Shown piece by piece: positions 30,336-54,139 of a stretch of 64,000 bases of DNA. Location: positions 1 to 64,000 of IMG/VR virus record IMGVR_UViG_3300046458_000091, one strand, 5' to 3'. Made by a program: the position numbers and the translations under genes. Below the pieces are notes generated by a model. It saw nothing but the letters and a program-made list of their open reading frames with translations. It searched no databases and had not been told where the DNA came from. The number at the start of each line of letters is the position of its first letter. Positions within the stretch are counted from its first letter, which is position 1. The stretch is from a virus.

Positions 30336-31079
30336 TTACTTGCCCAGCATGCGGCGGCGTAGACGCATCGACTTCGCGCGCCGCATCTTCGCTGCACCGG
30401 AGAAGGCCTTTTTCTGCATTTTACGCACGGCGCTTTTCTGGGCAGCGGTCAGGCGAACGTGGCCGCTGACTCGCTTTTTGATGCGCACTTTCTTGCCCTG
30501 GCGCACGGCCATGACCTTCTTGTAGACCGCATCCATCATGTTGTCATCGTCGCCACTGACGAACTTGTCCGCGTCGTCGAGCATGGCATCGTCGCCCTGC
30601 GGCAGCTTATCCAGAAGTGCGTCATGCACGCGGGCAGCTACTTCGTTGTCGAAGCTCATTTCTTCGCCCAGCAAGGCGTCAATGTCTTCAGGGGCAATAC
30701 CTTTATCTTCCATGTAGTCGCCGATCAGATCGGACAGATTCGCGGCATAGTCGGATTCGGCGTCGGTGATTTCTTCGTCGCCATCCGTGGCCACGCCGAC
30801 AATCAGCGCATACAGGCGGTCGCCGTAGCCTTCGCCCTTTTCAAGCTCCGACTCAGACCACTCCTGGACGATCATCACCGCGTCTTGGCGCATTTCGGCG
30901 GTGATGAGGGTGTCAGGCGCGTTTTCCTCGGTGATGTCGTCGAGCATGGCGCCCGGCTGATTCAGCGGCTTTTCTTGTTGCTGCTGTTGTTGCTGTTGCT
31001 GTTGTTGGTCAACAGCCGGTGCGGCGTAGGCCTGGGTGATGGCCGCGCCAGCGGCCAGTACGGTTTTCAGGTAGTTCAT
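30336..31079 (-). CDS. P1 gp21-like protein (acidic body, basic C-terminal tail)
   Basis: Lies between sheath and pmgG; RLTAAQKSA.RK...A..GAAK.RR.KSM.LRRR.LG. Confidence 0.72.
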   Translation of the reverse strand: MNYLKTVLAAGAAITQAYAAPAVDQQQQQQQQQQQEKPLNQPGAMLDDITEENAPDTLITAEMRQDAVMIVQEWSESELEKGEGYGDRLYALIVGVATDGDEEITDAESDYAANLSDLIGDYMEDKGIAPEDIDALLGEEMSFDNEVAARVHDALLDKLPQGDDAMLDDADKFVSGDDDNMMDAVYKKVMAVRQGKKVRIKKRVSGHVRLTAAQKSAVRKMQKKAFSGAAKMRRAKSMRLRRRMLGK

Positions 31080-31091
31080 GGGGTCACCTCC

Positions 31092-32738
31092 TTACGGGCG
31101 CACGATGTTTTGCTGGTTGCTGATAACCCGGGCGGTGCCGACGTAAGACATGAATGTCTCGATGGCCATCCGTTCCATGGGTTGGTTTTCGCTCGGCTGG
31201 ATAGTGGCGTTGTAGGCGCCGCCGTCGAGTTCAGCGCTCGGTTGAAGCCAGCCCGCCGACTTCAGCGCTGGGAAAAACTTCGCTACAAAGTCTTCGGTTG
31301 TCTTGACTGCCTGATCCATTGGCTTTTGCAGGGCTTGCTGAGCCACGGCTGCAATCGTGTCGTCCACGTAAGTCGCCATTTCCACAACGGCGATGAGCTT
31401 GGTGGCGCCCTCGGTTTTCGCGCCGGTCAGGGAGTCCCACCAGACGAAATTGCCGCCGCTCACGTAGTCCACATAGAACACAGGGTTGATACGGCTGGCC
31501 GCCAGGGTTTCCAGGTCGTCCGATTCCAGCTCTACGGTCTGGATCATGCCGGTACGGGTAACCGCGAAATCACTGCCCGCGATCACGACATTGCGTTTTG
31601 CGATGCCCTTGGCGTTGACCACTGCGTTACGCGCGCAGCGCAGGCCGATGTTCAAGCCGGACGTGCCGATGAAAGCCTGGCCACCCGCTGCCGGATTGGT
31701 AGCCGTGAACGGGGCCCAATAGCACTGGCTGTAGATGATGTCGGTATCGCCGCCTACGGAGTCGTAGAAGTTAACGGCAGCCTCAACGCTGAAGCGGCCC
31801 GGGATGTCCCACGGCACCTGGCGGTTGATGTCCTTGCCCAGCTGGAGCAGGCGAGAAAGCAGCGCAACGCTTTCGGTGCCGCCAGAGCCAATGTAGGTGA
31901 ACGAAGGCTTGGCACGGCGCAGGCGCGCTACAGCAGCGTCCAGGTCGGCATTGGTGTACAGCGTCGGGCCTTCAGTGAAGTACTGGAGCGGCGAGCCAGA
32001 GAAAATATCCTTGTTGCCGGTCTTGCCGTAGAACACGCAGGTCGGCGGGATAACCGCGTCCAGCGCCACATCAGTCACCAGCAGCAGGTCGGTGTACTGG
32101 GTCACGATGTCGGTAATGAAGTAGCTCTTACCGAATTCGTCCAGAGCAGCCGGATCAAGCGAGCCAGTGTAAGGACCCAGCACGATTTCGTTGGTATTCA
32201 CGTCACGCAGTTGCAGGGTGACGATTTTGGAGGCCTGGGCCACGCCCGCGTCATTTTCAACCGCGACAGCATGGATTTCGGGCTGCACGCCCTCGCTGAA
32301 GCATTCCAGGTGCTTGATGGCCAGCAGATCACCTGCCGACAAGCCCACCTCTTCATCGACCAGTTTCCATACCGGCGTTGCAGTAGCGCCCTGGGCCGGG
32401 GGCAAGGAAGCGGTGGCCACCATCAGCTGGTTCTTAGCGCTGGCACTAACCAGACGCGAGACAACGGCCTGTACGGTGCCCGCCTTGAGGGCTTCATAGA
32501 TATGAACGTAGGGCTGCGCCAGGGCGCTGGCCGACATCGACTGAGCAGCGCCCAGCCAGCGGGTTTGCTTGCCCTTGGAAACCGCAAAGGCCTTGTCAAT
32601 GCGCCCACGGCTAAAGCGGCCAGTGATGGCCATGTTGTGCGCCACAGTGTTGGTGCTGGGCTGTTCGGACATGTCGTTGATCGGGTACAGCAGTACGCCG
32701 GAACGCTTGTCGATGGTGCGCGAGAAAGGAATGGTCAT
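31092..32738 (-). CDS. tail sheath protein (P1 gp22-like)
   Basis: 548 aa; GRF.RGRIDK.F.V, LA..RINPV, DSLT; position next to the capsid gene. Confidence 0.85.
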   Translation of the reverse strand: MTIPFSRTIDKRSGVLLYPINDMSEQPSTNTVAHNMAITGRFSRGRIDKAFAVSKGKQTRWLGAAQSMSASALAQPYVHIYEALKAGTVQAVVSRLVSASAKNQLMVATASLPPAQGATATPVWKLVDEEVGLSAGDLLAIKHLECFSEGVQPEIHAVAVENDAGVAQASKIVTLQLRDVNTNEIVLGPYTGSLDPAALDEFGKSYFITDIVTQYTDLLLVTDVALDAVIPPTCVFYGKTGNKDIFSGSPLQYFTEGPTLYTNADLDAAVARLRRAKPSFTYIGSGGTESVALLSRLLQLGKDINRQVPWDIPGRFSVEAAVNFYDSVGGDTDIIYSQCYWAPFTATNPAAGGQAFIGTSGLNIGLRCARNAVVNAKGIAKRNVVIAGSDFAVTRTGMIQTVELESDDLETLAASRINPVFYVDYVSGGNFVWWDSLTGAKTEGATKLIAVVEMATYVDDTIAAVAQQALQKPMDQAVKTTEDFVAKFFPALKSAGWLQPSAELDGGAYNATIQPSENQPMERMAIETFMSYVGTARVISNQQNIVRP

Positions 32739-33169
32739 TGCTGAGCCTCCACAGGGGCAGCGGCTGGAGCTGCGGCCTCAGTTTTGCCAGGCTTGGTGAC
32801 CTTGGCGGTGCTCTTGCCCGCTGTCGAATCGGCAGGCGTATCACCTACCGGGTCAAGAGGCGCCTCAGGGACCGGCGCCACCACTTGGGGAGCGGTCAGC
32901 TCTGCGAAGTCCTCAGCATCACTGCCAGCACGGCTGGCCAGCTGGGACAGATCGGTAACCAGCAGCCAGGCCTGGTCAATGCTGCGTACGCGCACCTTCA
33001 CGGCCTCGCCCGGGGCGATAGGGGTGTTGATGCCCGAGGACGGGACTACCAACGCCTTGATGTGCTTGTGCTTCAGCTCCAGCACGAAGGGGAAGGTCTG
33101 ACCATCCACCAGTTTCTCAACGAGAGCCTGCGGGGCGTCACCTGCCTTGCTATCAATCTTTACTGTCAT
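32735..33169 (-). CDS. virion-associated hypothetical protein
   Basis: In the capsid operon; FP..L.L domain shared with the upstream gene. Confidence 0.7.
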   Translation of the reverse strand: MTVKIDSKAGDAPQALVEKLVDGQTFPFVLELKHKHIKALVVPSSGINTPIAPGEAVKVRVRSIDQAWLLVTDLSQLASRAGSDAEDFAELTAPQVVAPVPEAPLDPVGDTPADSTAGKSTAKVTKPGKTEAAAPAAAPVEAQQ

Positions 33170-33849: not shown

Positions 33850-35532
33850 TCAGGTCAGTGCAAACACGTTCTTGATGGTGATCAGCGCGCAACCCAGGGC
33901 CGAAGCCTTGTGCGGGTTGGCTTCAGTCAGTTGACGACTGAACAGCGCAGCACCGGTTTTCAGGTCGGAATTGACCGCCAGCGGGATCAGGGTCGGCGAG
34001 ACCGCATCAGAGAAGACAATCGGGTTACGCGCCACTTGCGGGGAGCGGCCGATGCACAGCATCTCGATGTCGGTCTCGGTTTCTTCGACGACATACGGGT
34101 CATAGATGACGTCGTATTTGCCCTTGTAGCGGCCCACGCGCCAGAAGCCAGGCTTCGCGTCAACGCCGGACGATACGAAGTCGTTGCTGTCCATCGACAG
34201 GAACTGAGCCATACCGATAGCGCCCACGTAGATGAACGCCAGGCCGTATTCCATGGTGGTGTTGGCCACCGCCTGGTCAACAGCCGCGACGAACGAACCG
34301 AAGTCGCGCCAGCCCTGCGCACGGGTCTTCTGGAGCAGCATTTCAGCCGCGTTGAAGTCGTAAGTGCGGTGGGTGTTCTTCGCCAGCTTTTTGACCTTGC
34401 GCAGAGCCGCGATATAGCGCTCGTTGGCCAGCTGAGTACGCGCTGCCTGGACCGCGATGGTCAGGCGGTCGGCGCCCAGTTCCGACTGGGACTGGCTACG
34501 CGAATCAGGGGTGGCCTGCATGATCACGCGCGAGGGCGCGCAGTACAGGGAGAAGCTGGTAGCGATGGTGCCAATGTTCGGCGCCAGGGCTGGGTTTTGC
34601 TCGAAATCGATAAACGCCTGTGCGTCTACATCGACGTCCGCAGGCAGCGCCGTAGCGAACGCCAGAGAGCCCACGCCGGTTTTTACGTTGATTACACCGG
34701 TAATGGAGTAATCGGTGCCGCCCGCCGAAAAGGAGCCGACCAGATTGGAGTTGTCAGTGCCGGAGTTGTTGGACTGCTCGAAAGCAACCGAAAAACCGTT
34801 AACTGCGATGGTGGTGCGGTTACGCAGCACAGGTACGGTGCCGCCAGCGCCACCGCTTTGGGTGGTAATGGCAAAGGTGCCGCTCTTGCGGTCGCCCGCG
34901 ATGGTCACCGGCACAACACGTTCAGAACGGGTGTACTCCTGGCCACCGGCCACGCCGTCGATGATGTCACCCGCTTTGTAGGCGCCGAAGGTGGAGCCTG
35001 CAATGGAGGTAATGATTGCCAACTTCGACTCGTTAGAGCTGAGGTCGGACGGCAGGTAAGCGCCGAACGGAATCGCCTCGCTCAGACCGCCAGTGATGGC
35101 CACCGCGATGCGGTTCGGCTGGTGCGACAGGGACGCCGACGTGTTGTTGGTACTGATGCTGTCGAGGGTGACGCCATCGGGCAGGACGTTGGTGGCCTTG
35201 CCGTCAGAGATGTTTTCGGCCTGGGACAGAACGGCGTCCAGCAGGTCGGCGGACGGGGTGAAACCGTGTTGGCGTTCGAAGGCGTTGATGCCGTCGAGCA
35301 TGGAGGTTACGGCCAGGGCCTTGTTCTGGTCGCCGTCGATACGGTCCAGCAGGCGGCGCATGCGTTCAGGGGCCAGGCGTGCAGCGTCGGAGACAACGTT
35401 TTTCACAACGTCTTGGGATGCCGGGCTCAGGCTGTCGAGCATTGCGCCGTTATTACGGGCTGCCGCGACCATCGAACCAACTCGTTCCTCGACTTCGTAC
35501 AAGCCGGAGTCGGGCGCGTAAAGATTGGGCAT
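33850..35532 (-). CDS. major capsid protein (P1 gp23-like)
   Basis: 560 aa with a propeptide carrying MLDS sites; AGSTFGAY..GD, FIDFEQNP.L.P. Confidence 0.88.
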   Translation of the reverse strand: MPNLYAPDSGLYEVEERVGSMVAAARNNGAMLDSLSPASQDVVKNVVSDAARLAPERMRRLLDRIDGDQNKALAVTSMLDGINAFERQHGFTPSADLLDAVLSQAENISDGKATNVLPDGVTLDSISTNNTSASLSHQPNRIAVAITGGLSEAIPFGAYLPSDLSSNESKLAIITSIAGSTFGAYKAGDIIDGVAGGQEYTRSERVVPVTIAGDRKSGTFAITTQSGGAGGTVPVLRNRTTIAVNGFSVAFEQSNNSGTDNSNLVGSFSAGGTDYSITGVINVKTGVGSLAFATALPADVDVDAQAFIDFEQNPALAPNIGTIATSFSLYCAPSRVIMQATPDSRSQSQSELGADRLTIAVQAARTQLANERYIAALRKVKKLAKNTHRTYDFNAAEMLLQKTRAQGWRDFGSFVAAVDQAVANTTMEYGLAFIYVGAIGMAQFLSMDSNDFVSSGVDAKPGFWRVGRYKGKYDVIYDPYVVEETETDIEMLCIGRSPQVARNPIVFSDAVSPTLIPLAVNSDLKTGAALFSRQLTEANPHKASALGCALITIKNVFALT

Positions 35533-35648: not shown

Positions 35649-38600
35649 CTACTTTTCGAGCACGATCAAACGCCCCCCGGCGTCGGTTTGCGCCAGCAGG
35701 TTTTTATCCTTGAAGGTGCCGCCTTCCAGGGGTTCGACCGTGGCGTCATGGGACTCAAGCCAGGCCCTGAAGGACGTCGCCGCCGCATCTCGACCGAAGA
35801 AAACCCCTTCCCCTGCGATGGCTACCAGCGTTCCGCCAGGCGCCAACATGCCGAAGGCGCGCATGATGTGAGCGGCGTCCCGGCGATTGCTAAAGGGTGG
35901 GTTCATGATGATGGCCGGGTACGGCTGTTCCGGCGTGAAGGTGTCGAAGTCGTTGCCAACCACGTTGTAGCCCTTGGCCGTGAGGATCTCGCGCAGCTGG
36001 TCGGACAGCTCGATGACATCCACTTCCCCGCCAGCAGCCTTTGCAGCGTCCGCCAGGTTGCCATTGCCCGCGCTGGGCTCCAGTACCCGCATGCCTTTCT
36101 TGATACCCGCCAGGGTGGCCATACGCTGCGCCAGGTGCGCAGGGGTAGGGAAGAAATCCAGGCCCACTTTCTGGCCGATGATGGCCCGTTCAGCTTTCTT
36201 GATGGGGTCCTCTTCGACCTTTGCAACCATCATCGGAATCAGCTCGCGCACGGCGGCCTGCATGGTGGCCACGTCGGTGATGCCCATGCGCGCCAGCCGA
36301 TCTGTCTTGGCGATGGCCTCCATGGGGGCCTCCAGAATCCATGAGCCGGTGCCGGTGCCTTTTAGCGCGTCGTTGGCCTTACGGGTAATGGCCATGTCCT
36401 CGCTGTTCATGGTGAAGCGCTCAGACCGCTGGCCCATCTTGGCCAGGGCTGCAATCAGTCGGCTGTTACCTTTGGGGTTCTGCTTGGCGATGGCTTCCGA
36501 CGCCTTACGGAAACGTTCAGACCATGTGATCAGGCTCGGCATAGTGACGTGCTTGAGGTCGTTATCATCGACCGGGCGGCCTTTGCGGCTCAGCTGCTCG
36601 CTGTAGCTCAGATGCTTATCAGCTTCGTATTGCGCAAGGTGCAGCGCCTTTTGCAGCTCTTCCAACTGGGCCCGGCTCGACAGCTTGGCCAGCAAACCGG
36701 CTGTACCGTTTTCGATGGCGTCGGCGATGTTGTTCAACGTCTGGCCAGCGGCTTTGTCGTAGGAAGCGCGAGCGACGGAACTGGCGGCCATACCAGCACG
36801 CCGGGCGGTGTTGGTGTTGCGCTCCTGGTTCATGCCCGCGTGACCGGTCTCTACGGCTTTATTCGCCACAGCACGCAGCTTTTCCACCTGGTTGGACAGC
36901 GCCTTTTGCGCGCGCTCTGCGGCCTGGCGTTCTGCGGTGGCGAGCTGCTCGGCCTGCTGTTCTGGAGACAGCACGACCGGCGCCTGGGCGGCCGGGATGT
37001 GGGCGGTCTCGCCGGACAAGTACTTCTCGCGGATGAAGTACCCGCCGTTCATGCGCCAGGTGTACGGGTCGATTTCCTTGGCTTGCGCCTGGGTCAGGTC
37101 GGTGCGGATGATGCCGCGCAGCACCTTGTCGCGCTTGGTGGTGTATTCAATGATCTGGTGGGCCACGTCGGACGCTGGCGGCGGCTCAGGCGCCTCAGCT
37201 GGCTCCGGCTCCGACAGTTCGCCCTCAATGAACATATTCAGGACCAGCCCGCCCATATCATCCAGCATGACATCGGCGTTTTCGTGTTCTACACTTGCCC
37301 CTGACGGATGCCCTGAATAGTTATCAGGGGAACATCTGCCCCCTAAAGCGGTGCTTGTTGAATCAAGCATCGCTTTTTCTTTGGGCGGGTCAATCATCAG
37401 GTCGTAATACAGATGACCCATGTTGTCTTTCTCGACGACCACCCGTACCGCTATCGACTCTCCCGCCAACGCCACGACGCTGCTCAGGTTGTAATAGCCC
37501 ACGACCTGGGGCTTTTTGTCGAGCTTGAAATTCTGCACAAACTCGGCCGCCGTGGCGCTCGCCAGGATCTGCGGCACCGCATGCAGCAATTTGATTTTCT
37601 TGGGGTTGCCGCTGAACGCCAACGTCTCCTTGATGCCGCGCTGTCGAATTTCGACCTGGGCCCCAAGCACCGGGCAATTCACCATCTGCCCGCGCATAGC
37701 CTTCAAATACGCTTCAGCAGCGCCCCGCAAGGCCTTCTTGCCCTCAGGGGTGTCCGGGAACTCTCCGAACTCAGTGCCGGTTAACTCAATCGGCGGCTTC
37801 GGTACGTCCGGCTCTTCAGCTGTCTGGTCTTGCTGGGCGGCCTGCTCAAGCGGTATGACAATTCCGCCTTTCTCCACAAAGCTCGCCAGCGTTACGCCGG
37901 GAGCCAGGGAAAATGGCTTAGATTGGGCACGTAGGTTATTGAGCACTACGCCATCTTGCCGCAACTGAGCCAATGCGCTGGGACCTTCGGCGTTCGCCCC
38001 CTGGAGTTGCAGGCTGCCCAGCGTATTGCGGTCGGAGCGGCCGGTTTTCTCAAGGCACTCAACGATTTTGTATTTAGCCCGTGCGACCTGGAATTCACGA
38101 AGAGGCAACTTATCGATACGGCTGGCCGCGTACAGGCTGAATGTATCGAAGCCCACCGCCTTCGCTGCATACTGGTCGGCCGCGTCTGAATCGTCGCCTT
38201 TGGCCTCTTGCTCGGACGGCGCCGCAGGCTGCTCGATTTCCGGCATGACGGCCAGCTTGCGGGCCGCCTCCACCAGCGCGTCAAAGTCCTTGCCGACGAT
38301 ACGAATACCGTTACCGCCACCCGGGAGGCGGTAGCTCAACGTCAAGCCAAGTTCCTGCTTTTCCACGCGCGCCCAGGAGCCGACCGGCGTGCTACTGATC
38401 TTGCGGCTCACTACGCCCTGGTTATGGCGCTGATCGTACGGCAGGGTGTCGAGCCAGGAGACGAACGCGGTGGCCAGCACCTTCTGCTGGGCAATCATGC
38501 TGTCATAGCCAGCCTCAGCCGGTGGCATATCCGGCCGGGCGAATACGGGGTTTGCGCCGCCTTCAAAGCCTGCCCGGGTCAGGAACATGTTATTGGCGTT

Positions 38601-39257
38601 TTCCAGCACCCATACGGTGCCCAGCTTGCCCGCCCGGTAGTTGCGCAGGACGTAGCCGTTGGCCTTGGCCGCCTTGATGCCCTCCAGCGTGGCCCTGGCC
38701 GCTTCTGCGCCTCGATCTGCCTCACCATTGATGGTGACTGTCGCCGTGAACGAAAGGTGCTGTACGTTGCCCTGGTAGAACCAGACAGACGTATCTGCCC
38801 GGCTGTTGATGGCGTCGGCCTTCAGAGAGCCCGCAGGCGTGAGCACGTCGGCGGCCTTGACCATGTGCGGCTTGTTGTTAGCCGTAGCGATGTCGCGGGC
38901 TTTCCCGGCCTCCCAGGCGGCGGCCTCATCCCGGTCAGAGATGGCCTTTATGGCAGCGCTAAGGCGGTCAATTGCCGCGCCAGCGGCCGGGCTGACGTGC
39001 CCTGTGTTCAGCAGCTTTTCGTACTGGTCCAGGTCAGCCCGGGCCGCTTCACGTTCCGCAATGAGCGGGTCAGTCTCCGGCGCTGGCCGGGCGGCGCCCA
39101 GGATGGCGCGCAGCTCCAGGCCCCGGGCACTGGCCCGCACCTTCTCGATGGCGCTCAGCGTCCCGGCCTCCAGGCTGTCGCGGATCTGCAACAACTCAGC
39201 GCTGAAACGCATTAACTCTAAAGAGTTATAACTCTTTAACTCTATTGTCTCAGTCAT
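35649..39257 (-). CDS. Dar-like polyvalent virion protein: LPD3-like domain plus C-terminal N6-adenine methyltransferase
   Basis: DFFPTP, VLEPSAGNG, MNPPF at the C-terminus; IELTG.EFG...LYYD central domain. Confidence 0.85.
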   Translation of the reverse strand: MTETIELKSYNSLELMRFSAELLQIRDSLEAGTLSAIEKVRASARGLELRAILGAARPAPETDPLIAEREAARADLDQYEKLLNTGHVSPAAGAAIDRLSAAIKAISDRDEAAAWEAGKARDIATANNKPHMVKAADVLTPAGSLKADAINSRADTSVWFYQGNVQHLSFTATVTINGEADRGAEAARATLEGIKAAKANGYVLRNYRAGKLGTVWVLENANNMFLTRAGFEGGANPVFARPDMPPAEAGYDSMIAQQKVLATAFVSWLDTLPYDQRHNQGVVSRKISSTPVGSWARVEKQELGLTLSYRLPGGGNGIRIVGKDFDALVEAARKLAVMPEIEQPAAPSEQEAKGDDSDAADQYAAKAVGFDTFSLYAASRIDKLPLREFQVARAKYKIVECLEKTGRSDRNTLGSLQLQGANAEGPSALAQLRQDGVVLNNLRAQSKPFSLAPGVTLASFVEKGGIVIPLEQAAQQDQTAEEPDVPKPPIELTGTEFGEFPDTPEGKKALRGAAEAYLKAMRGQMVNCPVLGAQVEIRQRGIKETLAFSGNPKKIKLLHAVPQILASATAAEFVQNFKLDKKPQVVGYYNLSSVVALAGESIAVRVVVEKDNMGHLYYDLMIDPPKEKAMLDSTSTALGGRCSPDNYSGHPSGASVEHENADVMLDDMGGLVLNMFIEGELSEPEPAEAPEPPPASDVAHQIIEYTTKRDKVLRGIIRTDLTQAQAKEIDPYTWRMNGGYFIREKYLSGETAHIPAAQAPVVLSPEQQAEQLATAERQAAERAQKALSNQVEKLRAVANKAVETGHAGMNQERNTNTARRAGMAASSVARASYDKAAGQTLNNIADAIENGTAGLLAKLSSRAQLEELQKALHLAQYEADKHLSYSEQLSRKGRPVDDNDLKHVTMPSLITWSERFRKASEAIAKQNPKGNSRLIAALAKMGQRSERFTMNSEDMAITRKANDALKGTGTGSWILEAPMEAIAKTDRLARMGITDVATMQAAVRELIPMMVAKVEEDPIKKAERAIIGQKVGLDFFPTPAHLAQRMATLAGIKKGMRVLEPSAGNGNLADAAKAAGGEVDVIELSDQLREILTAKGYNVVGNDFDTFTPEQPYPAIIMNPPFSNRRDAAHIMRAFGMLAPGGTLVAIAGEGVFFGRDAAATSFRAWLESHDATVEPLEGGTFKDKNLLAQTDAGGRLIVLEK
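39213..39245. repeat. AACTCtww octamer array (site 6), inside the first codons of the MTase gene
   Basis: aactcta aagagtt at aactcttt aactctat. Confidence 0.75.
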
Positions 39258-41565
39258 GCATTACCCCAAAAATCGAATCCAGCAGCGCTGTCTGTGTCAT
39301 TGCTTTTTCAAAGGCCTTTTCATCGCGCAGGGCGGCGAACACCTGGTCAAACGCGGCATTGATGCGCGCGCGCTCTTCCCCTTCCGGGTATGGCTTGAAG
39401 GGCATCCCCAGGGCGGGCAGGTAGTGGTACTTGTTGTCAGCCAGGCAGCTGAGGTAATCGTTTTTGCGGTCCATGGCGGTCAACTTGTCTTCCAGGTAGG
39501 CCTGGAACGCGCGGGCGGCCATTTCGTGGGTCTCAGACCACTTACGTCCGGCTACACCGTCGTCGAGCGCTTGAGCCTCGACGTAGAAGCGCGACACGCT
39601 GGCGCCGGTCTTGGCGGTTGCCTCGGTGGCACCGACCGGCGAGTAGTACGCGGCGGCCAGCTGGCGCCACAGCTTTTTCTGCTTGAGCATGCCCGGGCTG
39701 GTTTCGCCCTCATATCGCTTATCTACCGCCAGCACCGCAGGCTCCAGGGCGCCCGCCTGCTTGATGGCCAGCGCCACATAGCCTGAACTGTTCTCGATAT
39801 TGACGATGGCTGTGGCCCGGCTCTTGGGCGTCAGCTTGATGGTCTCCACCAGTCGCTCAGAGCCGCTGGTTAGGGCGGCCTTGAGCTGGACGAAGGCGGC
39901 GCGGATCGGCCCGGCAGGCATCAGCTCAGGGCGTTCCGTCGCAAACTCTTCCTTGGCGCCCTCTTCTCCGCGCAGCAGGGACGGCATGATGTTGTCCAGG
40001 GCCTTGAACGCTTCGTGTCCCTGGCTACCGGCGCCGTTGAGCTTGGTAATGTTGATGACGCGCTCTACCGGTTCGTAGTGGGCCTTCGCCGCGCCCTTCC
40101 CGCCCGCACCACGCGCCCCGAACGCCATGCCCAGGCGCCCGCCGAACCCAAGCTTGTCCTCTTCGATCTGGAGGACGTCGCTCATGTCCATCCAGGCCCC
40201 GGCGCTCTGCTCTACGTGCCACTTGGCGGCGGCGAAGTCCTCTTGTACCCAGGTGCCGGACTGCACCGCCCGAAAGCCGCACAGCTTTTCAAGGTCGGCC
40301 GTGGACGTCACTGTCACCGGCCGCCCGCCGCTGCGTTCGAACTTCTCGACCACCTTCAGGGTGAAGGTGATGCGCTTTTTAGGCGCCTGGCGCTCTGGAT
40401 CTGGCTTTTCCTTTTCGGCCCAGTCCCAGTTATCGGGCTCCCCTTCCTCAGCCTTGGCCACCTGCCCGGCAAAGGTGCCGGTGCGCAGGCGCTGGAACAT
40501 GACCGCGTTGATAAAGCGGCTGCCCATGGACGTCCAGGCCTGGGCCTCTGGTGTGCGCAGGTGGCGGGCCTTGGCGGCGTCCTCCAGGGCGGTTTTCTGC
40601 GCCTCGACATCGGCAATCTGTGCCCGCAGCGCTGCAAACTCTTCCTTAGTGGCCGCCACCTCGCTGCCGTACGCGGCGATATCGGCAGCAGCTGCGGCCG
40701 TGGTCGTTTCTACCGCCTCTTCGTGCATGGGCGCGACCTTCCAGCCGCGTTTGACTCGGTTTTCAAGCTCGGCCTTGGCCTGGTCCCGCGCCGCCGTGGT
40801 CCGGCTCATCGCGTTGTACAGGGTGTTACGGCCGACCATGATTGCTTTCTGCCGGTCGCCCAGTTCTGCCCGCTGCTGAGTCAGCGCGTTGAACTGCTCC
40901 ACCTCATCACTGTTGAGGCTCGCGCCGGTCAGCTCTTCCCCGATCTCAGCCGCAGCCGCCACCACTTCCTCAGTGGTCGTGAGCCGCTCCATCCGCGTGC
41001 GCAGCGTCTCAATGCCGATGGCATAGGATCTGCGCGACTTGGGGCTGTCCTCGGCTGGCATGGGGGCAATGGCGGCGTACAGGCGATTGACCAGATAGCC
41101 CGCCTGGGGCGTCATGCCGCTTTCACGCTGGGCCGCCCAGTCAACACTACCGAACAGGTTGGCCTTTTTGATCAGTTCGCGCGCCTGGCGCGGATTCTCT
41201 TCAATGGCCTTGAAGTCGATGTCAGAGACCCGGAGCATCTGCCCGGCTTCACGCGCCAGCTTGATCGACTGGGCGGCCAGCTCTTTACGGCTGCCGGAGA
41301 TGTACCCGGTGTCCTTGTAGCGGTAGTTTTCGGCGTTCGGGTCATCGCTCAAGCCGTCGTCGGCGGCGAACTCTGCGGCCTGCTCAGCATCGACCGGCAC
41401 GGGACCGGTGGCAGTCTCGCCGCCCAGGGCGGCATAGAGCGCCAGCGCCTCGGTGGTGGCGCGGATCTGCTCCATGGCGTTCAAGCTGCCGGACTGAAGT
41501 TGCTCACGCAGTTGCAGCAGCCTGGCGGCGCTGCGGGCCTGCTCGATGGAAGAAAGGGAATTCAT
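39250..41565 (-). CDS. ddrB: DdrB-like polyvalent protein (zincin-like fold plus LPD1)
   Basis: NYRYKDTGYI.GSRKE; GMAFGARG..AHYEP; HEM.ARAFQAY.EDK...YP.GEER..IN.AFD. Confidence 0.8.
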   Translation of the reverse strand: MNSLSSIEQARSAARLLQLREQLQSGSLNAMEQIRATTEALALYAALGGETATGPVPVDAEQAAEFAADDGLSDDPNAENYRYKDTGYISGSRKELAAQSIKLAREAGQMLRVSDIDFKAIEENPRQARELIKKANLFGSVDWAAQRESGMTPQAGYLVNRLYAAIAPMPAEDSPKSRRSYAIGIETLRTRMERLTTTEEVVAAAAEIGEELTGASLNSDEVEQFNALTQQRAELGDRQKAIMVGRNTLYNAMSRTTAARDQAKAELENRVKRGWKVAPMHEEAVETTTAAAAADIAAYGSEVAATKEEFAALRAQIADVEAQKTALEDAAKARHLRTPEAQAWTSMGSRFINAVMFQRLRTGTFAGQVAKAEEGEPDNWDWAEKEKPDPERQAPKKRITFTLKVVEKFERSGGRPVTVTSTADLEKLCGFRAVQSGTWVQEDFAAAKWHVEQSAGAWMDMSDVLQIEEDKLGFGGRLGMAFGARGAGGKGAAKAHYEPVERVINITKLNGAGSQGHEAFKALDNIMPSLLRGEEGAKEEFATERPELMPAGPIRAAFVQLKAALTSGSERLVETIKLTPKSRATAIVNIENSSGYVALAIKQAGALEPAVLAVDKRYEGETSPGMLKQKKLWRQLAAAYYSPVGATEATAKTGASVSRFYVEAQALDDGVAGRKWSETHEMAARAFQAYLEDKLTAMDRKNDYLSCLADNKYHYLPALGMPFKPYPEGEERARINAAFDQVFAALRDEKAFEKAMTQTALLDSIFGVMHD

Positions 41566-48778: not shown

Positions 48779-50806
48779 TCAGAAAGTGCCAGCCGTGGCC
48801 TTGAGCGCATAGGTGGCATAGGCGTCTGAGGCCTCGATAAACAGCTCTCGCAGCTCGCCCTCCCCGTAGGCTGCATAGATGCGTTCCATCTCCTTGAGCA
48901 CGTCCGCAGGCGCGCCCAGATCGGTGGAACCTTCAATGATGCTGTCCAGGTACTCTTTTGCCTTCTGCACTTGCTCATCCTCGGTTGGGTCTGGTGGTGG
49001 TTGTACCGCTTCAGGTTGCGGCGGTGGTTGATCGGTCTCCGGCTCCGACGTTGCCGCCTGGCGCACGGCTTCGGCCGCCTCCTGGGGCGTCTTGCCATCG
49101 GCGAACAGCTGGCCGGTCAATGCTTCTTGAGTCATGGCCACGGCCTGGGCGTCACCATCGGACGCCTCCAGCAGTTCGGCCAGGGTCTGGATAAAGGCCT
49201 CATCCCACGCCGGGCGCAGCAACACAGGCGCGGGCTCTGGCACTTCAGGTGCAGTCTGTTGCTGATCGGCCAGGGCTTTGGCGTCCGCTTCTGCCTTCGC
49301 ATCCACAGCGGCCAGCCCAGCGCCATCCGTACCGGCCTTGGCCGCCCGCACCAGCGCCCCGCCCACGTCGGCCATGATTTCGGCCTTGGTGACGGCTGCC
49401 GCGTCCAGCTTGAACCCGGCCTTGGTCAGCAGCTCGCGCAGGTCATCCTGGCTGTCGATGCCCTCAATCACCTTGAGCGCGGCGTCGATATCGCCAGCCT
49501 TCAGGCCGTCCGTGAATTTGGCCAGGTCGTCGCGGGTATCTTCCGGTGGCGGTGGCTCGGGGAATAAGCCCGGCTCACCACCTGGCGGCGTGGCCTTTTT
49601 CTTCTCCAGCTGGGCGGTCAGGTCAACAATCTGAGCGTCCAGGTCGGCCAACTGGGCGGTTTTGCTGTCTACGGCCGCCTTCGCCTCAGCCAGCGCCGCG
49701 TCGTCAGCGGCCTTGTTCTCGTTGGCCTTACCGAACTTCGCGCTGTTCTTCTGCACCAGCGCCATGATGCGCCGGGCAACGATACGCGGGTTCAGATCCT
49801 GGCCGCGCTCGGGCGCCACGGTGGCGGTAATGTCCCGCTTGTTCAGTACCCATTTCCAGCTGATCAGTTCATCACTGGCCATGAGCTTGTTCGGCGTGCT
49901 GTCCGGGTTGTGGAAGAACACCGACACGCTCTGGCCGTCATCCATGGAGAACAGCATGCCCACCTGGGTGGTGCCACGGCTCTTGAATGGCTTGCTGACA
50001 TCGACGCTTTCCGCCTTCACGTCGCCGCCCACGTTCTGCATCACGCGCAGCAGCTGGGAGGCCTTGCGGTCGAACTGCTTGTACTCGATCACCATGGCAT
50101 CCAGCATGCCGTCGTCGCTCAACTCCTGGGCGATGTCATCCATGGTGGCGCTGTCCATCATCAGGCTGTCGGCGTCATTGCGGCGCAGCTCGTACAGCAG
50201 GTCCGCTACGGTGGTGTCTACCGGCAGGTTGTCGGCGCCCCAGCGCGCGAATACGTCAGTCATGCTCAAGGTCTCATCTTTGGGGATATTGGGGAGGTCG
50301 GCGCTCAGTGGCTGGCTGAGGTCGCCATGCTTGAGCCAGTACTTGAACTGGGTGACGGTGCAGGCAGTCATGCTGCCCAGGCCTTGCCACCCGCGTTCAT
50401 AGGAATTCATGTAGGCGTTGCGGGCCTGTTCCTCATCCATGAACCCAAGCATTACCTTGTGCTCATCAAACGAGCCGTCAGCGGCATTCTGGTTGACCAC
50501 GTACACGGCCTGGCTCTCTGGCGCCGGGCCAACGTAGATGTCCACCGCGTCACCGTCCGCGCCCTTGGTGCCGTTCACATACCCGTAATGCGCCATACAG
50601 GTGATTGACCACGCCTTACCGTCGCTCTTGCCACGGCGCGGCTGGTGCATCGGTGTCTCGATGGTGATGCGCATCCCGTGGAGCTGCGTGGAGCCCTTGG
50701 CATAGTTACCGGCCCGGATCTGCTCCGGCGTCGGTTCAGCGGTTGACCCCAAGCCGAACGCGCCCGCGTGTGCGGCACTTTGAAGATTGCTAAAAATGTC
50801 GGTCAT
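48779..50806 (-). CDS. darA: DarA-like antirestriction virion protein with N-terminal inorganic-pyrophosphatase-like domain
   Basis: N-terminal AGNY.KG...HYGY..GT.GADGD.VD...FDEHKVMLGF; DarA core DGQSVS.FFHNPD.TP.K....ELISWKW.LNK.DIT..VAPERG. Confidence 0.88.
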   Translation of the reverse strand: MTDIFSNLQSAAHAGAFGLGSTAEPTPEQIRAGNYAKGSTQLHGMRITIETPMHQPRRGKSDGKAWSITCMAHYGYVNGTKGADGDAVDIYVGPAPESQAVYVVNQNAADGSFDEHKVMLGFMDEEQARNAYMNSYERGWQGLGSMTACTVTQFKYWLKHGDLSQPLSADLPNIPKDETLSMTDVFARWGADNLPVDTTVADLLYELRRNDADSLMMDSATMDDIAQELSDDGMLDAMVIEYKQFDRKASQLLRVMQNVGGDVKAESVDVSKPFKSRGTTQVGMLFSMDDGQSVSVFFHNPDSTPNKLMASDELISWKWVLNKRDITATVAPERGQDLNPRIVARRIMALVQKNSAKFGKANENKAADDAALAEAKAAVDSKTAQLADLDAQIVDLTAQLEKKKATPPGGEPGLFPEPPPPEDTRDDLAKFTDGLKAGDIDAALKVIEGIDSQDDLRELLTKAGFKLDAAAVTKAEIMADVGGALVRAAKAGTDGAGLAAVDAKAEADAKALADQQQTAPEVPEPAPVLLRPAWDEAFIQTLAELLEASDGDAQAVAMTQEALTGQLFADGKTPQEAAEAVRQAATSEPETDQPPPQPEAVQPPPDPTEDEQVQKAKEYLDSIIEGSTDLGAPADVLKEMERIYAAYGEGELRELFIEASDAYATYALKATAGTF

Positions 50807-51299: not shown

Positions 51300-51300
51300 A

Positions 51301-51939: not shown

Positions 51940-51977
51940 CTGAAACATCCTTTTGATATATGGGTTCGGCGCAGTGT

Positions 51978-52082: not shown

Positions 52083-52099
52083 CGGGGCACAGCGGATGC

Positions 52100-52363: not shown

Positions 52364-52409
52364 AAGCTGACGGAGCGAACATTATCATTTTGTTTATTTT
52401 ACGCAACTA

Positions 52410-52430
52410 CAAAACATCATTTTGATGTAT
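52410..52430. promoter_or_regulatory. operator-like site (inverted near-copy of 19375-19395)
   Basis: CAAAACATCATTTTGATGTAT in a divergent AT-rich gap. Confidence 0.7.
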
Positions 52431-52448
52431 TTAATCGGAGACAGCACG

Positions 52449-52931
52449 ATGTCAGATACCCCGGCAGGGATGAAAATAATGGTCACGGTAGGCGGTTACG
52501 GTGGCGCAGGTGCTGAGCCGATCACCCTCACAGCCTTTAAAAACAATGCATTAGGGACGACGGTCATCCTGGGCAAGGTTGGGTATAGGGATATACCAGA
52601 CGAAGGCTTTGCCTTTGTCACGAATCTGCGCCTGGCGAACTACGACAGTCTGTTCCGGGACGAAGACATGGGCGCCGCCATCGTGGCGTTCAAAGAGGGC
52701 GAAGGGATGGGCACGATCCTGTTCGACGACGAAGCGATGAAGTACCGCCCCCGGATCGAAATCGACGGCGTGGACACGAAGGGTCAGAAATACCGGCTGG
52801 GCGGGGATATGACGAACGGGGAGATTGCTGTGCTGGCGCTGGCGCATTTCCTCTCGCGCCAGCGCTCCATGAGTGCCGTCTTCAACATGAGCGACGAACT
52901 CATGCGGGTGTATCAGATCAGGTCGATTTAG
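52449..52931 (+). CDS. hypothetical protein
   Basis: GGAG RBS; fills the gap, convergent with hdf. Confidence 0.75.
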   Translation: MSDTPAGMKIMVTVGGYGGAGAEPITLTAFKNNALGTTVILGKVGYRDIPDEGFAFVTNLRLANYDSLFRDEDMGAAIVAFKEGEGMGTILFDDEAMKYRPRIEIDGVDTKGQKYRLGGDMTNGEIAVLALAHFLSRQRSMSAVFNMSDELMRVYQIRSI

Positions 52932-54139
52932 TCCTGGGCAGCGAAAGGGACCCCATACGGGTCGTACCCGGCATCCTCAAGCGCTGACCGGCCAGCATTC
53001 GTGAGCATATACAGACCCTCGGTGGTCTCCACCAGACCCAGCGCCAGCAGCTGAGCCAGCGCAGCCTGATCCTTGATTTCTTCAGCGTCGGCGGCCGAAA
53101 TCACAGCGATGCTGACCAGCTCAGCCAGACCGGCGTCACTCAGACCCGTGTCGGCGCTGTCCAGCATCGCAATGGCGGTCTTGAACGACAGCGCAAGGTT
53201 GCGCTCCAGGGCGGCCTGATCAAGGTTGCCCTCAGATTCGTTGATTGGGGCGTTGTTCTCCACCACGGCCAGGGCCTGGCGCAGCTGCTCGACAGCGCCA
53301 GCGGTGGCCAGGCTATCCAGCATCACCGGATCTGCCGTGACGATATCCCGCGCCGCGACGTAGGCCGCAGCCACCACCAGTTCAGCCGGTTGCTCTGGTA
53401 CGTCCGCGACCTGGCCCCCGTCGATGCTATCCAGGAGCGCCGCCGCAGCCTTACCGGCAGCATTGAGCACGTTCGCCCCTTCGTCGGTGTAGCGGTCAAC
53501 CCAGCCCAACTCAATCAGGTCATCACGCCCCGCCTTGCTGGGAATGTCCCCGTCATCCAACGGCCCCATCTCTGCCAAGGCGCGCAACACGTCCTTGGCC
53601 GCATCGTTCAGTTCTGCCGGTGCCTTCGCCTGCGGCTCCATACTGTCGGTCATGGCGCCCAGCTGCTGCTGGAGATCGGCCACGGTCGCTGCACGGTCGG
53701 CAATCTGGGTGTCCAGCTGCGCCAGGCGCTCCGCGTAGACCTGGGACTGTTTGGGCTTCGTCGTGCGCATGCCCCGGGGCAGCTCAATCTGTTTGCGCGC
53801 CTGGGCCTTCTGGAATGCAGCTTGGTTTCGCTCAGCCAGGGCCGCGATTTCAGCCACGGCCGCCGCGCTGTCGGTCTGGTTCTTCAGTGGCACCGCGTTG
53901 CCGTTCAGCGTGACCTGGAAGATATCGCCGGTAGCATTCACACGCAGCACCACCACCTGGCCGCTCGCCAGCGTCAAGGTGGCCTCGCGGTAGGTCACGC
54001 CCGATACGCGGCGCTTCTTGTCGTTGAACTCATACCCGGCCACGGCCTGGCCTGCTCTGATCATCAGTTGGCTGACTTTCTTGAGGGCCTTGTCTGCGGC
54101 CTGTGCGCTGGAGAAATCAAGCGTATTCGTTGCTGGCAT
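52928..54139 (-). CDS. hdf: Hdf-like virion protein with extended modular C-terminus
   Basis: KKRRVSGV.......LASGQ.V...V..TGDIFQV.LNG...P (DarA-N/Hdf fold). Confidence 0.75.
   Translation of the reverse strand: MPATNTLDFSSAQAADKALKKVSQLMIRAGQAVAGYEFNDKKRRVSGVTYREATLTLASGQVVVLRVNATGDIFQVTLNGNAVPLKNQTDSAAAVAEIAALAERNQAAFQKAQARKQIELPRGMRTTKPKQSQVYAERLAQLDTQIADRAATVADLQQQLGAMTDSMEPQAKAPAELNDAAKDVLRALAEMGPLDDGDIPSKAGRDDLIELGWVDRYTDEGANVLNAAGKAAAALLDSIDGGQVADVPEQPAELVVAAAYVAARDIVTADPVMLDSLATAGAVEQLRQALAVVENNAPINESEGNLDQAALERNLALSFKTAIAMLDSADTGLSDAGLAELVSIAVISAADAEEIKDQAALAQLLALGLVETTEGLYMLTNAGRSALEDAGYDPYGVPFAAQD

Follow-up and report, generated by a model that had tools for sequence, protein, structure and literature searches.

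In phage P1 the major capsid protein gp23 is cut between E120 and S121, as mapped by Edman sequencing (Gonzales et al. 2022, PMC9024508), and DarA loses a propeptide; the cryo-EM model of the P1 head lacks DarA residues 1-69, and Hdf is reported not to be processed (PMC12810830). The role of the protease Pro in these cuts is stated in these papers as predicted or by citation. In phage T4 the prohead protease gp21 processes the capsid, the scaffold and the packaged internal proteins (IPI-III, Alt) that are later injected; it cuts after Glu in a hydrophobic-x-Glu context and removes short N-terminal targeting peptides. In giant phages one head protease (phiKZ gp175, SPN3US gp245) recognizes one short motif and processes many head and ejected proteins, with multiple motif copies inside propeptides (PMC10052503). 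Polyvalent proteins of phages and conjugative elements are large virion-associated proteins that have been proposed to be cut into functional units through a metallopeptidase (MPTase) domain within the protein (Iyer et al. 2017, PMC5512222).

A P1-like Pseudomonas phage-plasmid (82.8-kb genome; IMG/VR record IMGVR_UViG_3300046458_000091) marks its capsid protein, its head protease and its packaged anti-defence enzymes with one short signal, Met-Leu-Asp-Ser, which is most likely the place where the head protease cuts, so that multi-enzyme cargo proteins would be cut into pieces inside the capsid. The window is the stretch of 64,000 nucleotides that was analysed, positions 1 to 64,000 of that record. 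A preliminary description of it had proposed that a motif of the form [ML][LMT]D[SDAG] recurs in head-associated proteins between enzyme modules, is much rarer in tail proteins, and marks the sites of an Asp-specific prohead protease that releases enzymes fused to Dar scaffolds inside the head for injection.

The Met-Leu-Asp motif in head-associated proteins

The observation holds: every motif listed in the preliminary description is present in the translated minus-strand genes at the places given there. The features are as follows, all on the minus strand; a slash within a motif marks the mapped or predicted cut, and Pata, Pput, Pflu and Ppsy are labels for orthologues. Xanthomonas phage Rb1 and Acinetobacter phage ABMM1 are cultured D-type relatives.

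33850..35532, minus strand: major capsid protein (P1 gp23-like, 560 aa) with an N-terminal 124-aa delta/scaffold-like region (phrog_1014, E 1e-102; tblastn matches to P1 gp23 and to the Rb1 major capsid protein).
35431..35442, minus strand: capsid site AMLD33/S, kept as xMLD/S in the Pata, Pput and Pflu orthologues.
35290..35301, minus strand: capsid site SMLD80/G, aligned with S[ML]LDG in the Pseudomonas relatives and with ALFDG and AIFDG in the Burkholderia plasmid and Rb1.
35233..35244, minus strand: weaker candidate capsid site DLLD99/A, additional to those of the preliminary description; the relatives have LID/A or MID/S here.
35158..35169, minus strand: capsid maturation site VTLD124/S, the predicted N-terminus of the mature capsid protein, aligned with the mapped P1 site AMLE120/S and with D6 AMFE/S, Pflu ATLD/S and Rb1 IAMD/S.
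30336..31079, minus strand: gp21-like protein (247 aa) with an acidic body and a conserved, very basic 64-aa C-terminal tail (phrog_1053; BLAST to P1 gp21, 36% identity).
30936..30947, minus strand: gp21-like site AMLD47/D, aligned with D6 AMLE/S, Rb1 VTLD/S and ABMM1 AFD/S.
30573..30584, minus strand: gp21-like site AMLD168/D, kept in Pata, Pput and Pflu.
30528..30539, minus strand: gp21-like site NMMD183/A, just before the basic tail, aligned with Rb1 PALD/AAYKK, ABMM1 GFD/SMAKK, D6 AMLE/AVRKK and P1 MLTE/AFKK.
35649..39257, minus strand: polyvalent cargo protein (MTase protein, 1202 aa) with an N-terminal tag, an unknown region, LPD3 (506-618; Pfam E 7e-16), a linker and a C-terminal methyltransferase module (677-1202; Pfam Methyltransf_23 and PHROG DNA methyltransferase families); the conserved C-module starts at 677-702 in the orthologues.
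37359..37370, minus strand: MTase-protein site AMLD632/S, 12 residues after the LPD3 domain.
37257..37268, minus strand: MTase-protein site VMLD666/D, just before the Pro/Glu/Ala linker and the methyltransferase module, followed by a conserved LNLF(I)EGE-like element.
39250..41565, minus strand: LPD1-domain cargo protein (771 aa; Pfam LPD1 676-749).
39274..39285, minus strand: LPD1-protein site ALLD763/S, 8 residues before the C-terminus; ALLDS lies at 761/764 in this phage and the three close Pseudomonas orthologues, and ALLDA775 in Ppsy.
48779..50806, minus strand: InPase-DarA fusion (675 aa; Pfam InPase 28-159, E 2e-50; DarA_N 234-355, E 3e-37).
50150..50161, minus strand: DarA site LMMD218/S, aligned with P1 LMTE/S, D6 LIFE/A and Rb1 LLMD/A.
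50096..50107, minus strand: DarA site GMLD236/A at the start of DarA_N, aligned with P1 DLLE68/A and D6 AMFE/S.
52928..54139, minus strand: Hdf-like protein (403 aa; Pfam DarA_N, phrog_1620 Hdf-like) with a DarA_N domain plus helix (1-165) and then three extra modules; its AF2 model matches chain I of the P1 head cryo-EM entries (E 2e-5, 186 columns).
53642..53653, minus strand: Hdf site AMTD165/S at the end of helix 131-165; the 161-170 block has pLDDT 57.
53426..53437, minus strand: Hdf site ALLD237/S, followed by residues 241-251 with pLDDT below 50.
53312..53323, minus strand: Hdf site VMLD275/S in short helix 271-277, before helix 282-302; the 271-280 block has pLDDT 64.
53156..53167, minus strand: Hdf site AMLD327/S at the end of helix 306-328, before the last module 335-389.

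Enrichment over background, which the preliminary description had set as a test, was examined in a gene call of the whole genome (100 genes, 23,922 aa) with 300 within-protein shuffles. The pattern [ML][LMT]D[SDAG] occurs 23 times against 8.6 +/- 3.0 expected (maximum 18; 0 of 300 shuffles reach 23), M[LMT]D[SDAG] 16 times against 2.2 +/- 1.45 (0 of 300), and [AGSV]M[LM]D[SDAG] 12 times against 0.44 (0 of 300). Control patterns are not enriched: the L-first form L[LM]D[SDAG] occurs 6 times against 4.0 (74 of 300 reach it), the Glu form M[LMT]E[SDAG] 2 against 2.2, and the reversed motif 2 against 2.0. The statistical signal is carried by Met at P3, and L-first sites (ALLDS, DLLDA) stand only on conservation.

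All 16 M-first hits lie in six proteins, namely the capsid N-terminus, the gp21-like protein, the LPD3-MTase protein, InPase-DarA, Hdf, and the P1 Pro homologue just outside the window; in all six-frame ORFs of 60 aa or more (66,245 residues) the 16 hits fall in the same six proteins. A head set chosen a priori by P1 homology or polyvalent domains (portal, Pro, capsid, DarA, Hdf, MTase, LPD1) has 13 hits in 4,439 aa, while the rest has 3 hits in 19,483 aa, all three in the gp21-like protein (Fisher p = 1e-7). There are 0 hits in 3,283 aa of seven tail or tail-adjacent proteins; four of these have tail-type PHROG hits (for the 940-aa one, 64544-67366, endolysin hits score higher), one is the PmgG-like protein, and two are unannotated neighbours. 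Codons at the sites vary synonymously (GAC 11, GAT 9; CTC, CTG, CTT; AGC, TCA, TCG, AGT), so the signal is in the protein and not in the DNA. The protein that the preliminary description called DdrB has no BLAST hit in P1 and is better called an LPD1-domain protein.

Homology to P1 sites and conservation at module borders

The decisive link is to P1, in which the mapped gp23 cut lies in the context NKAMLE/SVAAEM, the same motif with Glu; the preliminary description was made without the context of this site and compared the motif only with T4. At the capsid maturation site, both DarA sites, the first and last gp21 sites and Pro site 1, P1 and D6 have E whereas this phage and seven other relatives have D or a D-variant. 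The two DarA sites align with the two P1 DarA propeptide sites, so the InPase domain sits on the piece that P1 removes; P1 DLLE68/A fits the cryo-EM model that lacks residues 1-69. In P1 itself the Glu motif is only weakly enriched genome-wide (5 observed against 2.1 expected; 22 of 300 shuffles reach it), and P1 Hdf has no motif.

The 306-aa gene at genome positions 67369-68289, outside the window and with the portal gene (phrog_1497) immediately upstream, encodes the P1 Pro homologue (35.9% identity over residues 10-197). Its AF2 catalytic domain (1-148, block pLDDT 71-96) has a predicted T4 gp21-like fold, aligning to T4 gp21 5jbl_B at Z 9.8 with rmsd 2.7 A over 128 residues; herpesvirus proteases follow at Z about 5. 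S122 and H97 are invariant in 24 of 24 homologues, and H55 is nearly invariant (at least 90% of the 24; in the printed alignment blocks only homologue P0024 differs). The Pro tail carries four copies of the motif; 90 of 90 homologues (30-70% identity) keep at least 2 D-type sites in the tail (68 have four), while P4 and the flanks vary. D161 and L238 are invariant and D239 is nearly so. Sites 1 and 3 lie in segments with pLDDT below 50, but sites 2 and 4 lie in confidently predicted helices. Family-wide, 353 clusters match at E <= 0.001; of the best 150 representatives, 131 have the PN[YFW] anchor, and the first tail site is D in 124, E in 5 and absent in 2.

In Hdf, D165, D237, D275 and D327, as well as L236 and L326, are invariant in 32 of 32 aligned homologues while the linkers vary. 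Hdf homologues with 3, 4, 5 and 7 sites average 346, 401, 476 and 518 aa, and one Hdf module is replaced by an unrelated one in 5 of the 32 with the flanking sites kept. The LPD3 cassette carries its sites wherever LPD3 sits in the protein: the strict motif follows LPD3 in 22 of 39 LPD3 homologues (query included), starting 12 residues after the LPD3 end in 21 of them and 13 in homologue P0235, and a second strict-motif site follows within 70 aa of the LPD3 end in 19 of those 22 (VMLD[DA] in 18, HLLDS in P0218). A relaxed site lies within 35 aa in 37 of 39, against a background of 0.07. The MTase-protein sites belong to this cassette and are absent from the two closest plasmid orthologues (Pata, Pput), which lack LPD3; cutting is therefore not needed for the methyltransferase as such.

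A predicted Asp-specific prohead protease and its substrates

The interpretation in the preliminary description is supported in part. An Asp-specific prohead protease is well supported by comparison, and the fusion of enzymes to Dar scaffolds fits the architecture, but the release of active enzymes, their retention in the head and their injection remain inferences; no proteomic or N-terminal data were found for this phage or any D-type relative. In the explanation favoured here, which is held with fairly high confidence, (small)-Met-Leu-Asp/Ser is the cleavage code of the Pro homologue, a putative serine protease of predicted T4 gp21/herpesvirus-assemblin fold that would cut after Asp where P1 Pro cuts after Glu. 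Inside the procapsid it would trim its own C-terminal tail at four sites; remove and fragment the 124-residue scaffold-like N-terminus of the capsid protein, leaving a mature protein that starts at S125; cut the gp21-like protein into an acidic body and a basic 64-residue tail; and cut the packaged cargo proteins at module borders, separating the InPase piece from the DarA core, the Hdf core from three small modules, the N-tag-LPD3 piece from the methyltransferase module, and the last 8 residues from the LPD1 protein. The sequence analysis itself shows the enrichment of the motif, its restriction to these proteins, its conservation, the positional homology to P1 sites and the exchange of Asp and Glu; that the bonds are cut, that Pro cuts them, and that the freed modules stay in the head and enter the host with the DNA are inferred.

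It is possible, though unlikely, that the protease cuts only the P1-homologous sites (capsid N-terminus, DarA propeptide, its own tail, perhaps gp21), and that the extra copies in Hdf, the MTase protein and the LPD1 protein are not cut, or serve to degrade or trim rather than to release working enzymes, in which case there would be no polyprotein delivery system. This reading draws on the unprocessed state reported for P1 Hdf, the missing MTase-protein sites in Pata and Pput, the mere 8 residues removed from the LPD1 protein, and the location of two Pro sites and Hdf site 4 (in a block of pLDDT 84) in confident helices, where accessibility is unproven. However, the invariance of all four Hdf Asp residues amid varying linkers, the scaling of site number with module number, the module swap that keeps its flanking sites and the site after LPD3 in 37 of 39 homologues argue against it; as P1 Hdf has no motif at all, its being uncut says nothing about these sites.

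An uncut docking signal that binds the capsid interior, the scaffold region or the protease and targets proteins to the procapsid would fit the occurrence of the motif only in head-associated proteins and the location of several copies in helices. This is considered very unlikely because the homologous P1 motif is a mapped scissile bond, the P1 DarA site coincides with the first ordered residue in the cryo-EM model, P1' is small (S, A, G or D in the sequence logo) as expected for a protease site, and a separate N-terminal tag shared by the MTase and LPD1 proteins is a better candidate for targeting. Least likely is that the recurrence reflects chance, composition or common descent of duplicated modules, or that another protease (host, or a hidden self-processing domain) makes the cuts. 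Hdf and the Pro tail do contain repeated segments, and self-processing is proposed for polyvalent proteins (PMC5512222), but shuffles never reach the observed count, the reversed and Glu forms are at expectation, the flanks of the sites are unrelated, the exchanges of Asp and Glu are concerted across four unrelated substrates, and no peptidase family was found by Pfam in the ten proteins scanned.

Comparison with described systems

The closest described system is P1 head maturation, which has a homologous protease, capsid, gp21, DarA and Hdf, the same P4-P1' pattern (A-M-L-acid/S) and cut sites at aligned positions. This phage differs in having Asp instead of Glu at P1 and a much more regular and more numerous motif; its DarA carries an InPase domain on the piece that P1 discards, its Hdf has three extra modules with sites, and its other cargo consists of LPD3-MTase and LPD1 proteins with no BLAST match in P1. 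T4 gp21 shares the predicted protease fold and an acidic P1 residue, and its processing of the capsid, the scaffold and packaged proteins that are later injected resembles what is predicted here, but here P1 is Asp, P3-P2 are Met-Leu, and many sites are internal, between folded modules. The giant-phage proteases resemble the predicted system in that one head protease with one short motif processes many head and ejected proteins. In SPN3US, all identified cuts other than the self-cleavage produce N-terminal propeptides (PMC10052503), whereas here the predicted cuts divide multi-domain cargo into several modules; the SPN3US motif ends in Glu. Polyvalent proteins share the LPD1, LPD3, InPase and DarA_N domains, and their cutting into functional units has already been proposed, but by an MPTase domain (PMC5512222); no such domain was found among the proteins scanned here, in which the modules are instead bounded by the putative prohead-protease motif.

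Genomic setting and recurrence of the motif

The sequence is bases 1-64,000 of a single 82,801-bp contig with about 60% G+C. PHROG and Pfam scans and tblastn show a distant P1-like myophage/phage-plasmid, with PmgG-like, gp21-like, sheath and gp23-like capsid genes, two polyvalent proteins (LPD3 + methyltransferase, here the MTase protein; and LPD1), an InPase + DarA_N protein (DarA) and an Hdf-like protein; portal, terminase subunits and a 306-aa gene directly after the portal lie beyond position 64,000. The closest public records are Pseudomonas plasmids (54.9-67.6% capsid identity), one Burkholderia plasmid, one Ideonella plasmid and Xanthomonas phage Rb1, found in plasmid and phage collections; a search of viral contigs with the single capsid protein found no relative. 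P1 itself is at 20-36% identity. Other features are as follows.

51301-51948 and 54270-55268: genes of 215 and 332 aa that look like ParA and RepA, by eye only
32735-33836: two small genes (144 and 227 aa, the second Ala/Gly/Pro-rich) between the capsid and sheath genes, without PHROG or Pfam match; conserved in the Pseudomonas plasmids, whereas in P1 genes 23 and 22 are adjacent with nothing between them
29139-30332: PmgG-like protein with a Gly/Ser-rich N-terminal extension of about 145 residues that P1 PmgG lacks and a weak tape-measure PHROG hit; relatives carry SMLDG or ALLDG at position 107 where this phage has GLVDD, so it may be a further, weaker protease substrate
58532-60577: a 681-aa ORF with a low coding score (0.07 per codon), local G+C of 0.525 and no PHROG family, possibly a recently acquired foreign gene

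The preliminary description reported that a Met/Leu-Leu/Met-Asp motif recurs in head-associated proteins, and this observation is confirmed: each copy it listed is present where it was placed. Genes were called on the whole contig with a codon-usage model trained on the annotated genes, a crude procedure that gave 100 genes and 23,922 aa. The pattern originally proposed, [ML][LMT]D[SDAG], occurs 23 times against 8.6 +/- 3.0 in 300 within-protein shuffles, none of which reaches 23. The signal is carried by Met at P3: M[LMT]D[SDAG] occurs 16 times against 2.2 expected and [AGSV]M[LM]D[SDAG] 12 times against 0.44, whereas the L-first form (6 against 4.0), the Glu form (2 against 2.2) and the reversed motif (2 against 2.0) are at expectation. 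All 16 M-first hits lie in six proteins, even when all six-frame ORFs of 60 aa or more (66,245 residues) are scanned: gp21-like 3, capsid 2, MTase protein 2, DarA 2, Hdf 3, and the 306-aa protein after the portal 4. A head set fixed beforehand holds 13 hits in 4,439 aa, against 3 in 19,483 aa elsewhere, all three of those in gp21-like (Fisher p 1e-7); seven tail or tail-adjacent proteins hold none in 3,283 aa. Codons at the sites differ synonymously, which identifies a protein signal and rules out a DNA-level repeat as the cause.

The P1 Pro homologue and the Asp-for-Glu exchange

The genes and residue considered here are as follows (genome coordinates).

68289-69857: portal (phrog_1497, E 3e-124)
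67369-68289: 306-aa homologue of P1 Pro, next to the portal gene and on the same strand
67915-67917: residue 125 of the Pro homologue, three residues after the invariant Ser122

The 306-aa protein is the homologue of P1 Pro by tblastn (35.9% identity over residues 10-197, E 1e-21, annotated pro/Pro in P1 records). Its AF2 model has a confident domain at 1-148; residues 1-149 align to T4 gp21 (5jbl_B) at Z 9.8, rmsd 2.7 A over 128 residues, well above the next entries, which are herpesvirus proteases at Z about 5 (5.5 or less). The top three Foldseek hits are 5jbl, but only at E 0.012, and a profile of the Pro alignment searched against PDB sequences gave only coiled-coil noise for the tail and nothing for the catalytic domain, such that the predicted fold rests on the structural comparison. 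Among 24 aligned homologues, and without superposition on the gp21 catalytic residues, S122 and H97 are invariant and H55 is nearly so (at least 90%; in the printed alignment blocks only the homologue P0024 differs). The tail (149-306) carries four candidate sites (D161/S, D184/S, D239/S and D262/S; a slash within a sequence marks the mapped or predicted scissile bond), of which sites 1 and 3 lie in segments with pLDDT below 50 and sites 2 and 4 in helices. All 90 homologues found (30-70% identity) keep at least two such sites in the tail and 68 have four; P4 varies over A, S, T, V, D, E, G, P and Q, and the flanks are poorly conserved.

The link to experiment is provided by P1. Edman sequencing places the P1 capsid cut between E120 and S121 (PMC9024508), and in the P1 record that bond lies in NKAMLE/SVAAEM, which is the motif of the preliminary description with Glu for Asp. 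DarA residues 1-69 are not seen in the P1 cryo-EM map, a fragment of about 9 kDa is removed, and Hdf is not processed (PMC12810830); P1 DarA has LMTE42/S and DLLE68/A, and P1 Hdf has no motif. In P1 the loose pattern [ML][LMTI]E[SDAG] occurs 3 times in Pro, 2 in DarA, 3 in gp21 and 2 in gp23, the same orthologous set as here, although genome-wide the P1 enrichment is weak (5 observed against 2.1 expected, reached by 22 of 300 shuffles). P1 DdrB, DarB, Ulx and portal proteins each have one or two matches to a loose hydrophobic-x-Glu-Ser/Ala pattern, but with 38 hits in 25,859 aa this pattern is too loose in P1 to say anything about DdrB processing.

Eight relatives were retrieved whole and their orthologues aligned, with the following result.

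Residues at aligned sites in Glu-type phages (P1, D6) and in Asp-type elements (this phage and relatives)
Capsid maturation site: Glu-type, P1 AMLE/S, D6 AMFE/S; Asp-type, this phage VTLD124/S, the relative Pflu ATLD/S, Burkholderia plasmid LYD/S, Rb1 IAMD/S
DarA sites 1 and 2: Glu-type, P1 LMTE/S and LLE/A, D6 LIFE/A and AMFE/S; Asp-type, this phage LMMD/S and GMLD/A, Rb1 LLMD/A and LALD/A
gp21 last site, before the basic tail: Glu-type, D6 AMLE/AVRKK, P1 MLTE/AFKK; Asp-type, this phage NMMD/AVYKK, Rb1 PALD/AAYKK, Acinetobacter phage ABMM1 GFD/SMAKK
First site of the Pro tail: Glu-type, E in P1 and D6; Asp-type, D in 13 of 13 others

All candidate sites in this phage have Asp, in contrast to the Glu specificity of P1 Pro and T4 gp21; the difference concerns predicted specificity only. 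P3-P2 also drifts by lineage: Met-Leu in the Pseudomonas clade, Val-Phe or Val-Leu in Burkholderia, and x-Phe in Acinetobacter. A concerted change at many unrelated substrate sites is what a change of protease specificity predicts.

Family-wide, a profile search found 353 clusters (50% identity) at E <= 0.001. Of the best 150 representatives, 131 have the PN[YFW] anchor that ends the catalytic domain, and the first site after it has D in 124, E in 5 and is absent in 2; tail motifs total 374 with D against 51 with E. The clear Glu users are four representatives plus P1 and D6, and they form one clade; the representative P0091 belongs to that clade by sequence but uses Asp. The position that tracks the difference best is residue 125, which is Thr in 6 of 7 sequences scored as Glu-type, one of which (P0377) looks misclassified; in 116 Asp-type sequences it is Ile (78), Val (12), Phe (8) or Met (5), and Thr in 0.9%, and it is Val in P0091. 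With Thr in the Glu-type clade (P1, D6 and four representatives), residue 125 is a candidate determinant of the Asp/Glu choice, as a lead from covariation only. Two other candidates were rejected: Arg57, next to the conserved His (GHGRR in P1 and D6), is not kept in the other Glu-type representatives (GHGAR, GHQPR), and GGWSW against GFSS around the putative catalytic Ser is a clade marker, since P0091 has GGWSW and uses Asp.

Cargo proteins and module borders

Segments of the substrates and cargo proteins referred to in this section are as follows.

30336-30527: C-terminal 64 residues of the gp21-like protein
39050-39257 and 41370-41565: N-termini of the MTase and LPD1 proteins
39213-39257: start region of the MTase protein, for which the public gene call (P0212, 1187 aa) begins 15 codons downstream of the longest ORF (1202 aa); residue numbers follow the 1202-aa reading
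37170-37370: conserved tail of the LPD3 module

In DarA, InPase spans 28-159 and DarA_N spans 234-355 (Pfam, E 3e-37 for DarA_N), and the sites are at 218 and 236. They align with the P1 propeptide sites, MLD236/A just before DarA_N with P1 LLE68/A, and the InPase domain therefore sits on the piece that P1 removes.

After its last predicted cut, the gp21-like protein ends in a very basic tail (YKKV..RQGKKVRIKKR...RRAKSMRLRRR) that is conserved from Acinetobacter phage ABMM1 to P1, whereas the body is strongly acidic. It could be the missing scaffold or core protein, or the source of a DNA-binding internal peptide; a text search for gp21 in the P1 virion proteome paper returned only the T4 protein.

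Hdf (DarA_N, E 9e-15) has a model of mean pLDDT 82.6 with a DarA_N domain and a helix to residue 165, a small helix-strand module at 179-240, a helical module at 256-328 and a second small module at 335-389. The preliminary description called modules of Hdf winged-helix-like; the model shows two small helix-strand modules and the PDB matches to MarR-type proteins are weak (E about 0.5), which do not establish that label. The four sites are at helix ends or between modules, next to dips in confidence (57, below 50, 64), except for site 4, which lies in a block of 84. The first 186 alignment columns match a chain of the P1 head cryo-EM entries, and the modules after site 1 are therefore additions relative to P1. 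All four Asp residues are invariant in 32 of 32 aligned homologues, and in 5 of these 32 the module between sites 1 and 2 is replaced by an unrelated one with the sites kept. Among 120 homologues, those with 3, 4, 5 and 7 sites average 346, 401, 476 and 518 aa; five have no site under the pattern used.

In the MTase protein, the sites (632, 666) lie between LPD3 (506-618) and the C-terminal module shared with all orthologues, which starts at 677-702 and is preceded by a Pro/Glu/Ala linker; the two closest plasmid orthologues lack both LPD3 and the sites. A search with the LPD3 region gave 39 proteins with the module. In 22 of these (query included; 21 at 58-100% identity to the region, the homologue P0235 at 48%), xMLD/S or a close form follows LPD3, 12 residues after its end in 21 and 13 in P0235, and in 19 of the 22 a second strict-motif site follows within 70 aa of the LPD3 end; this holds whether LPD3 lies at 70, 79, 348, 387 or 491. 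With a relaxed pattern, 37 of 39 have a site within 35 aa, against 7% of random windows of the same proteins, and in 36 of 39 an LNLF-like element follows. The sites therefore travel with the LPD3 cassette. In most of the homologues P0213-P0250 the module is followed by a conserved tail consisting of a cut-site motif, an SPD(N/H)YSG-like element, a second cut-site motif and (V)LNLFIEGE, which looks like a fixed cassette end of unknown role.

In the LPD1 protein, ALLD/S sits 12 residues after the LPD1 domain and 8 residues from the end; it is kept in this phage and the three close Pseudomonas orthologues, and as ALLDA775 in P. psychrotolerans. No hit was obtained by blastp of the MTase and LPD1 proteins against all P1 ORFs at E 1e-4, such that homologues of DarB and DdrB were not found among these two proteins. 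The two otherwise unrelated cargo proteins share a similar helical N-terminal stretch of about 50-70 residues (blastp: MTase 2-53 to LPD1 12-63 in relatives) that is kept in the Pseudomonas orthologues, and P1 DdrA begins with a similar LS-x-IE...L pattern; this stretch is a candidate capsid-loading tag, analogous to the N-terminal 30 residues of P1 DarB.

Interpretation and comparison with known systems

The preliminary description inferred an Asp-specific prohead protease and enzymes fused to Dar scaffolds that are released in the head for injection, and this interpretation is partly supported: strongly for the Asp-cutting protease, and as inference for release and delivery. Enrichment of the motif, its restriction to head and cargo proteins, its conservation, its positional homology with mapped or inferred P1 ends and the exchange of Asp for Glu rest on the computation; that any of the bonds is cut, that Pro with its predicted specificity cuts them, that the helical sites are accessible, what becomes of the pieces and that they are injected remain inferences. 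The best rival explanation is that only the P1-homologous sites are cut.

A wider reading is possible but tentative. In this view the whole P1 Pro family (353 clusters) would use a hydrophobic-hydrophobic-Asp/Ser code whose P3-P2 preference drifts by lineage (Met-Leu in this Pseudomonas clade, x-Phe in Acinetobacter-type, Val/Thr-Leu elsewhere), and P1 and D6, the only studied members, would be a small derived Glu-cutting branch that correlates with Thr instead of Ile/Val/Phe three residues after the putative catalytic Ser. On this code the phages would have built true polyproteins, in which LPD3, LPD1, InPase and small Hdf modules would be portable cassettes carrying their own cut sites, and any enzyme spliced into a Dar scaffold would be loaded, cut free in the head and injected.

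Head proteases that cut after Glu and process packaged proteins are textbook (T4, phiKZ-like phages, P1). To these the present analysis adds a predicted change of the residue before the scissile bond to Asp, the majority state of the P1 Pro family, so that the model phage would be the exception; a simple, readable code that predicts mature ends of capsid, scaffold-like and cargo proteins in hundreds of uncultured P1-like phage-plasmids; and a concrete mechanism by which polyvalent anti-defence proteins without a peptidase domain of their own could be divided into working units. It also gives a design rule (tag + module + M-L-D-S) for loading foreign proteins into P1-type capsids, building on the DarB-tag work in P1. 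Literature searches on prohead protease cleavage motifs and their Glu or Asp specificity, on polyvalent proteins and on P1-like Pseudomonas phage-plasmids with DarA found, within an incomplete library, no description of an Asp-cutting prohead protease or of this motif, and no Asp-specific site was found in PMC10052503. 

The proteins resemble the polyvalent proteins of Iyer et al. 2017 (PMC5512222) in combining LPD or effector domains in one virion-associated polypeptide (LPD3 + methyltransferase; InPase + DarA_N; LPD1). For such proteins self-processing by a metallopeptidase (MPTase) domain was proposed; a Pfam scan of ten proteins at E <= 0.01 found no peptidase family here, although a divergent domain could be missed. 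In T4-type cargo a short N-terminal targeting peptide is removed at a hydrophobic-x-Glu site, whereas the sites here are internal and end in Asp, and no motif follows the N-terminal tag shared by the two cargo proteins. With the P1 Dar (defence against restriction) system the phage shares DarA and Hdf with a DarA_N domain and a predicted DarA propeptide site. A gp21-fold head protease that matures the capsid and processes packaged proteins at one short acidic motif is known from P1, T4 and phiKZ/SPN3US (PMC10052503); what is new here is Asp before the predicted scissile bond, and internal sites that bound portable modules of Dar and polyvalent proteins.
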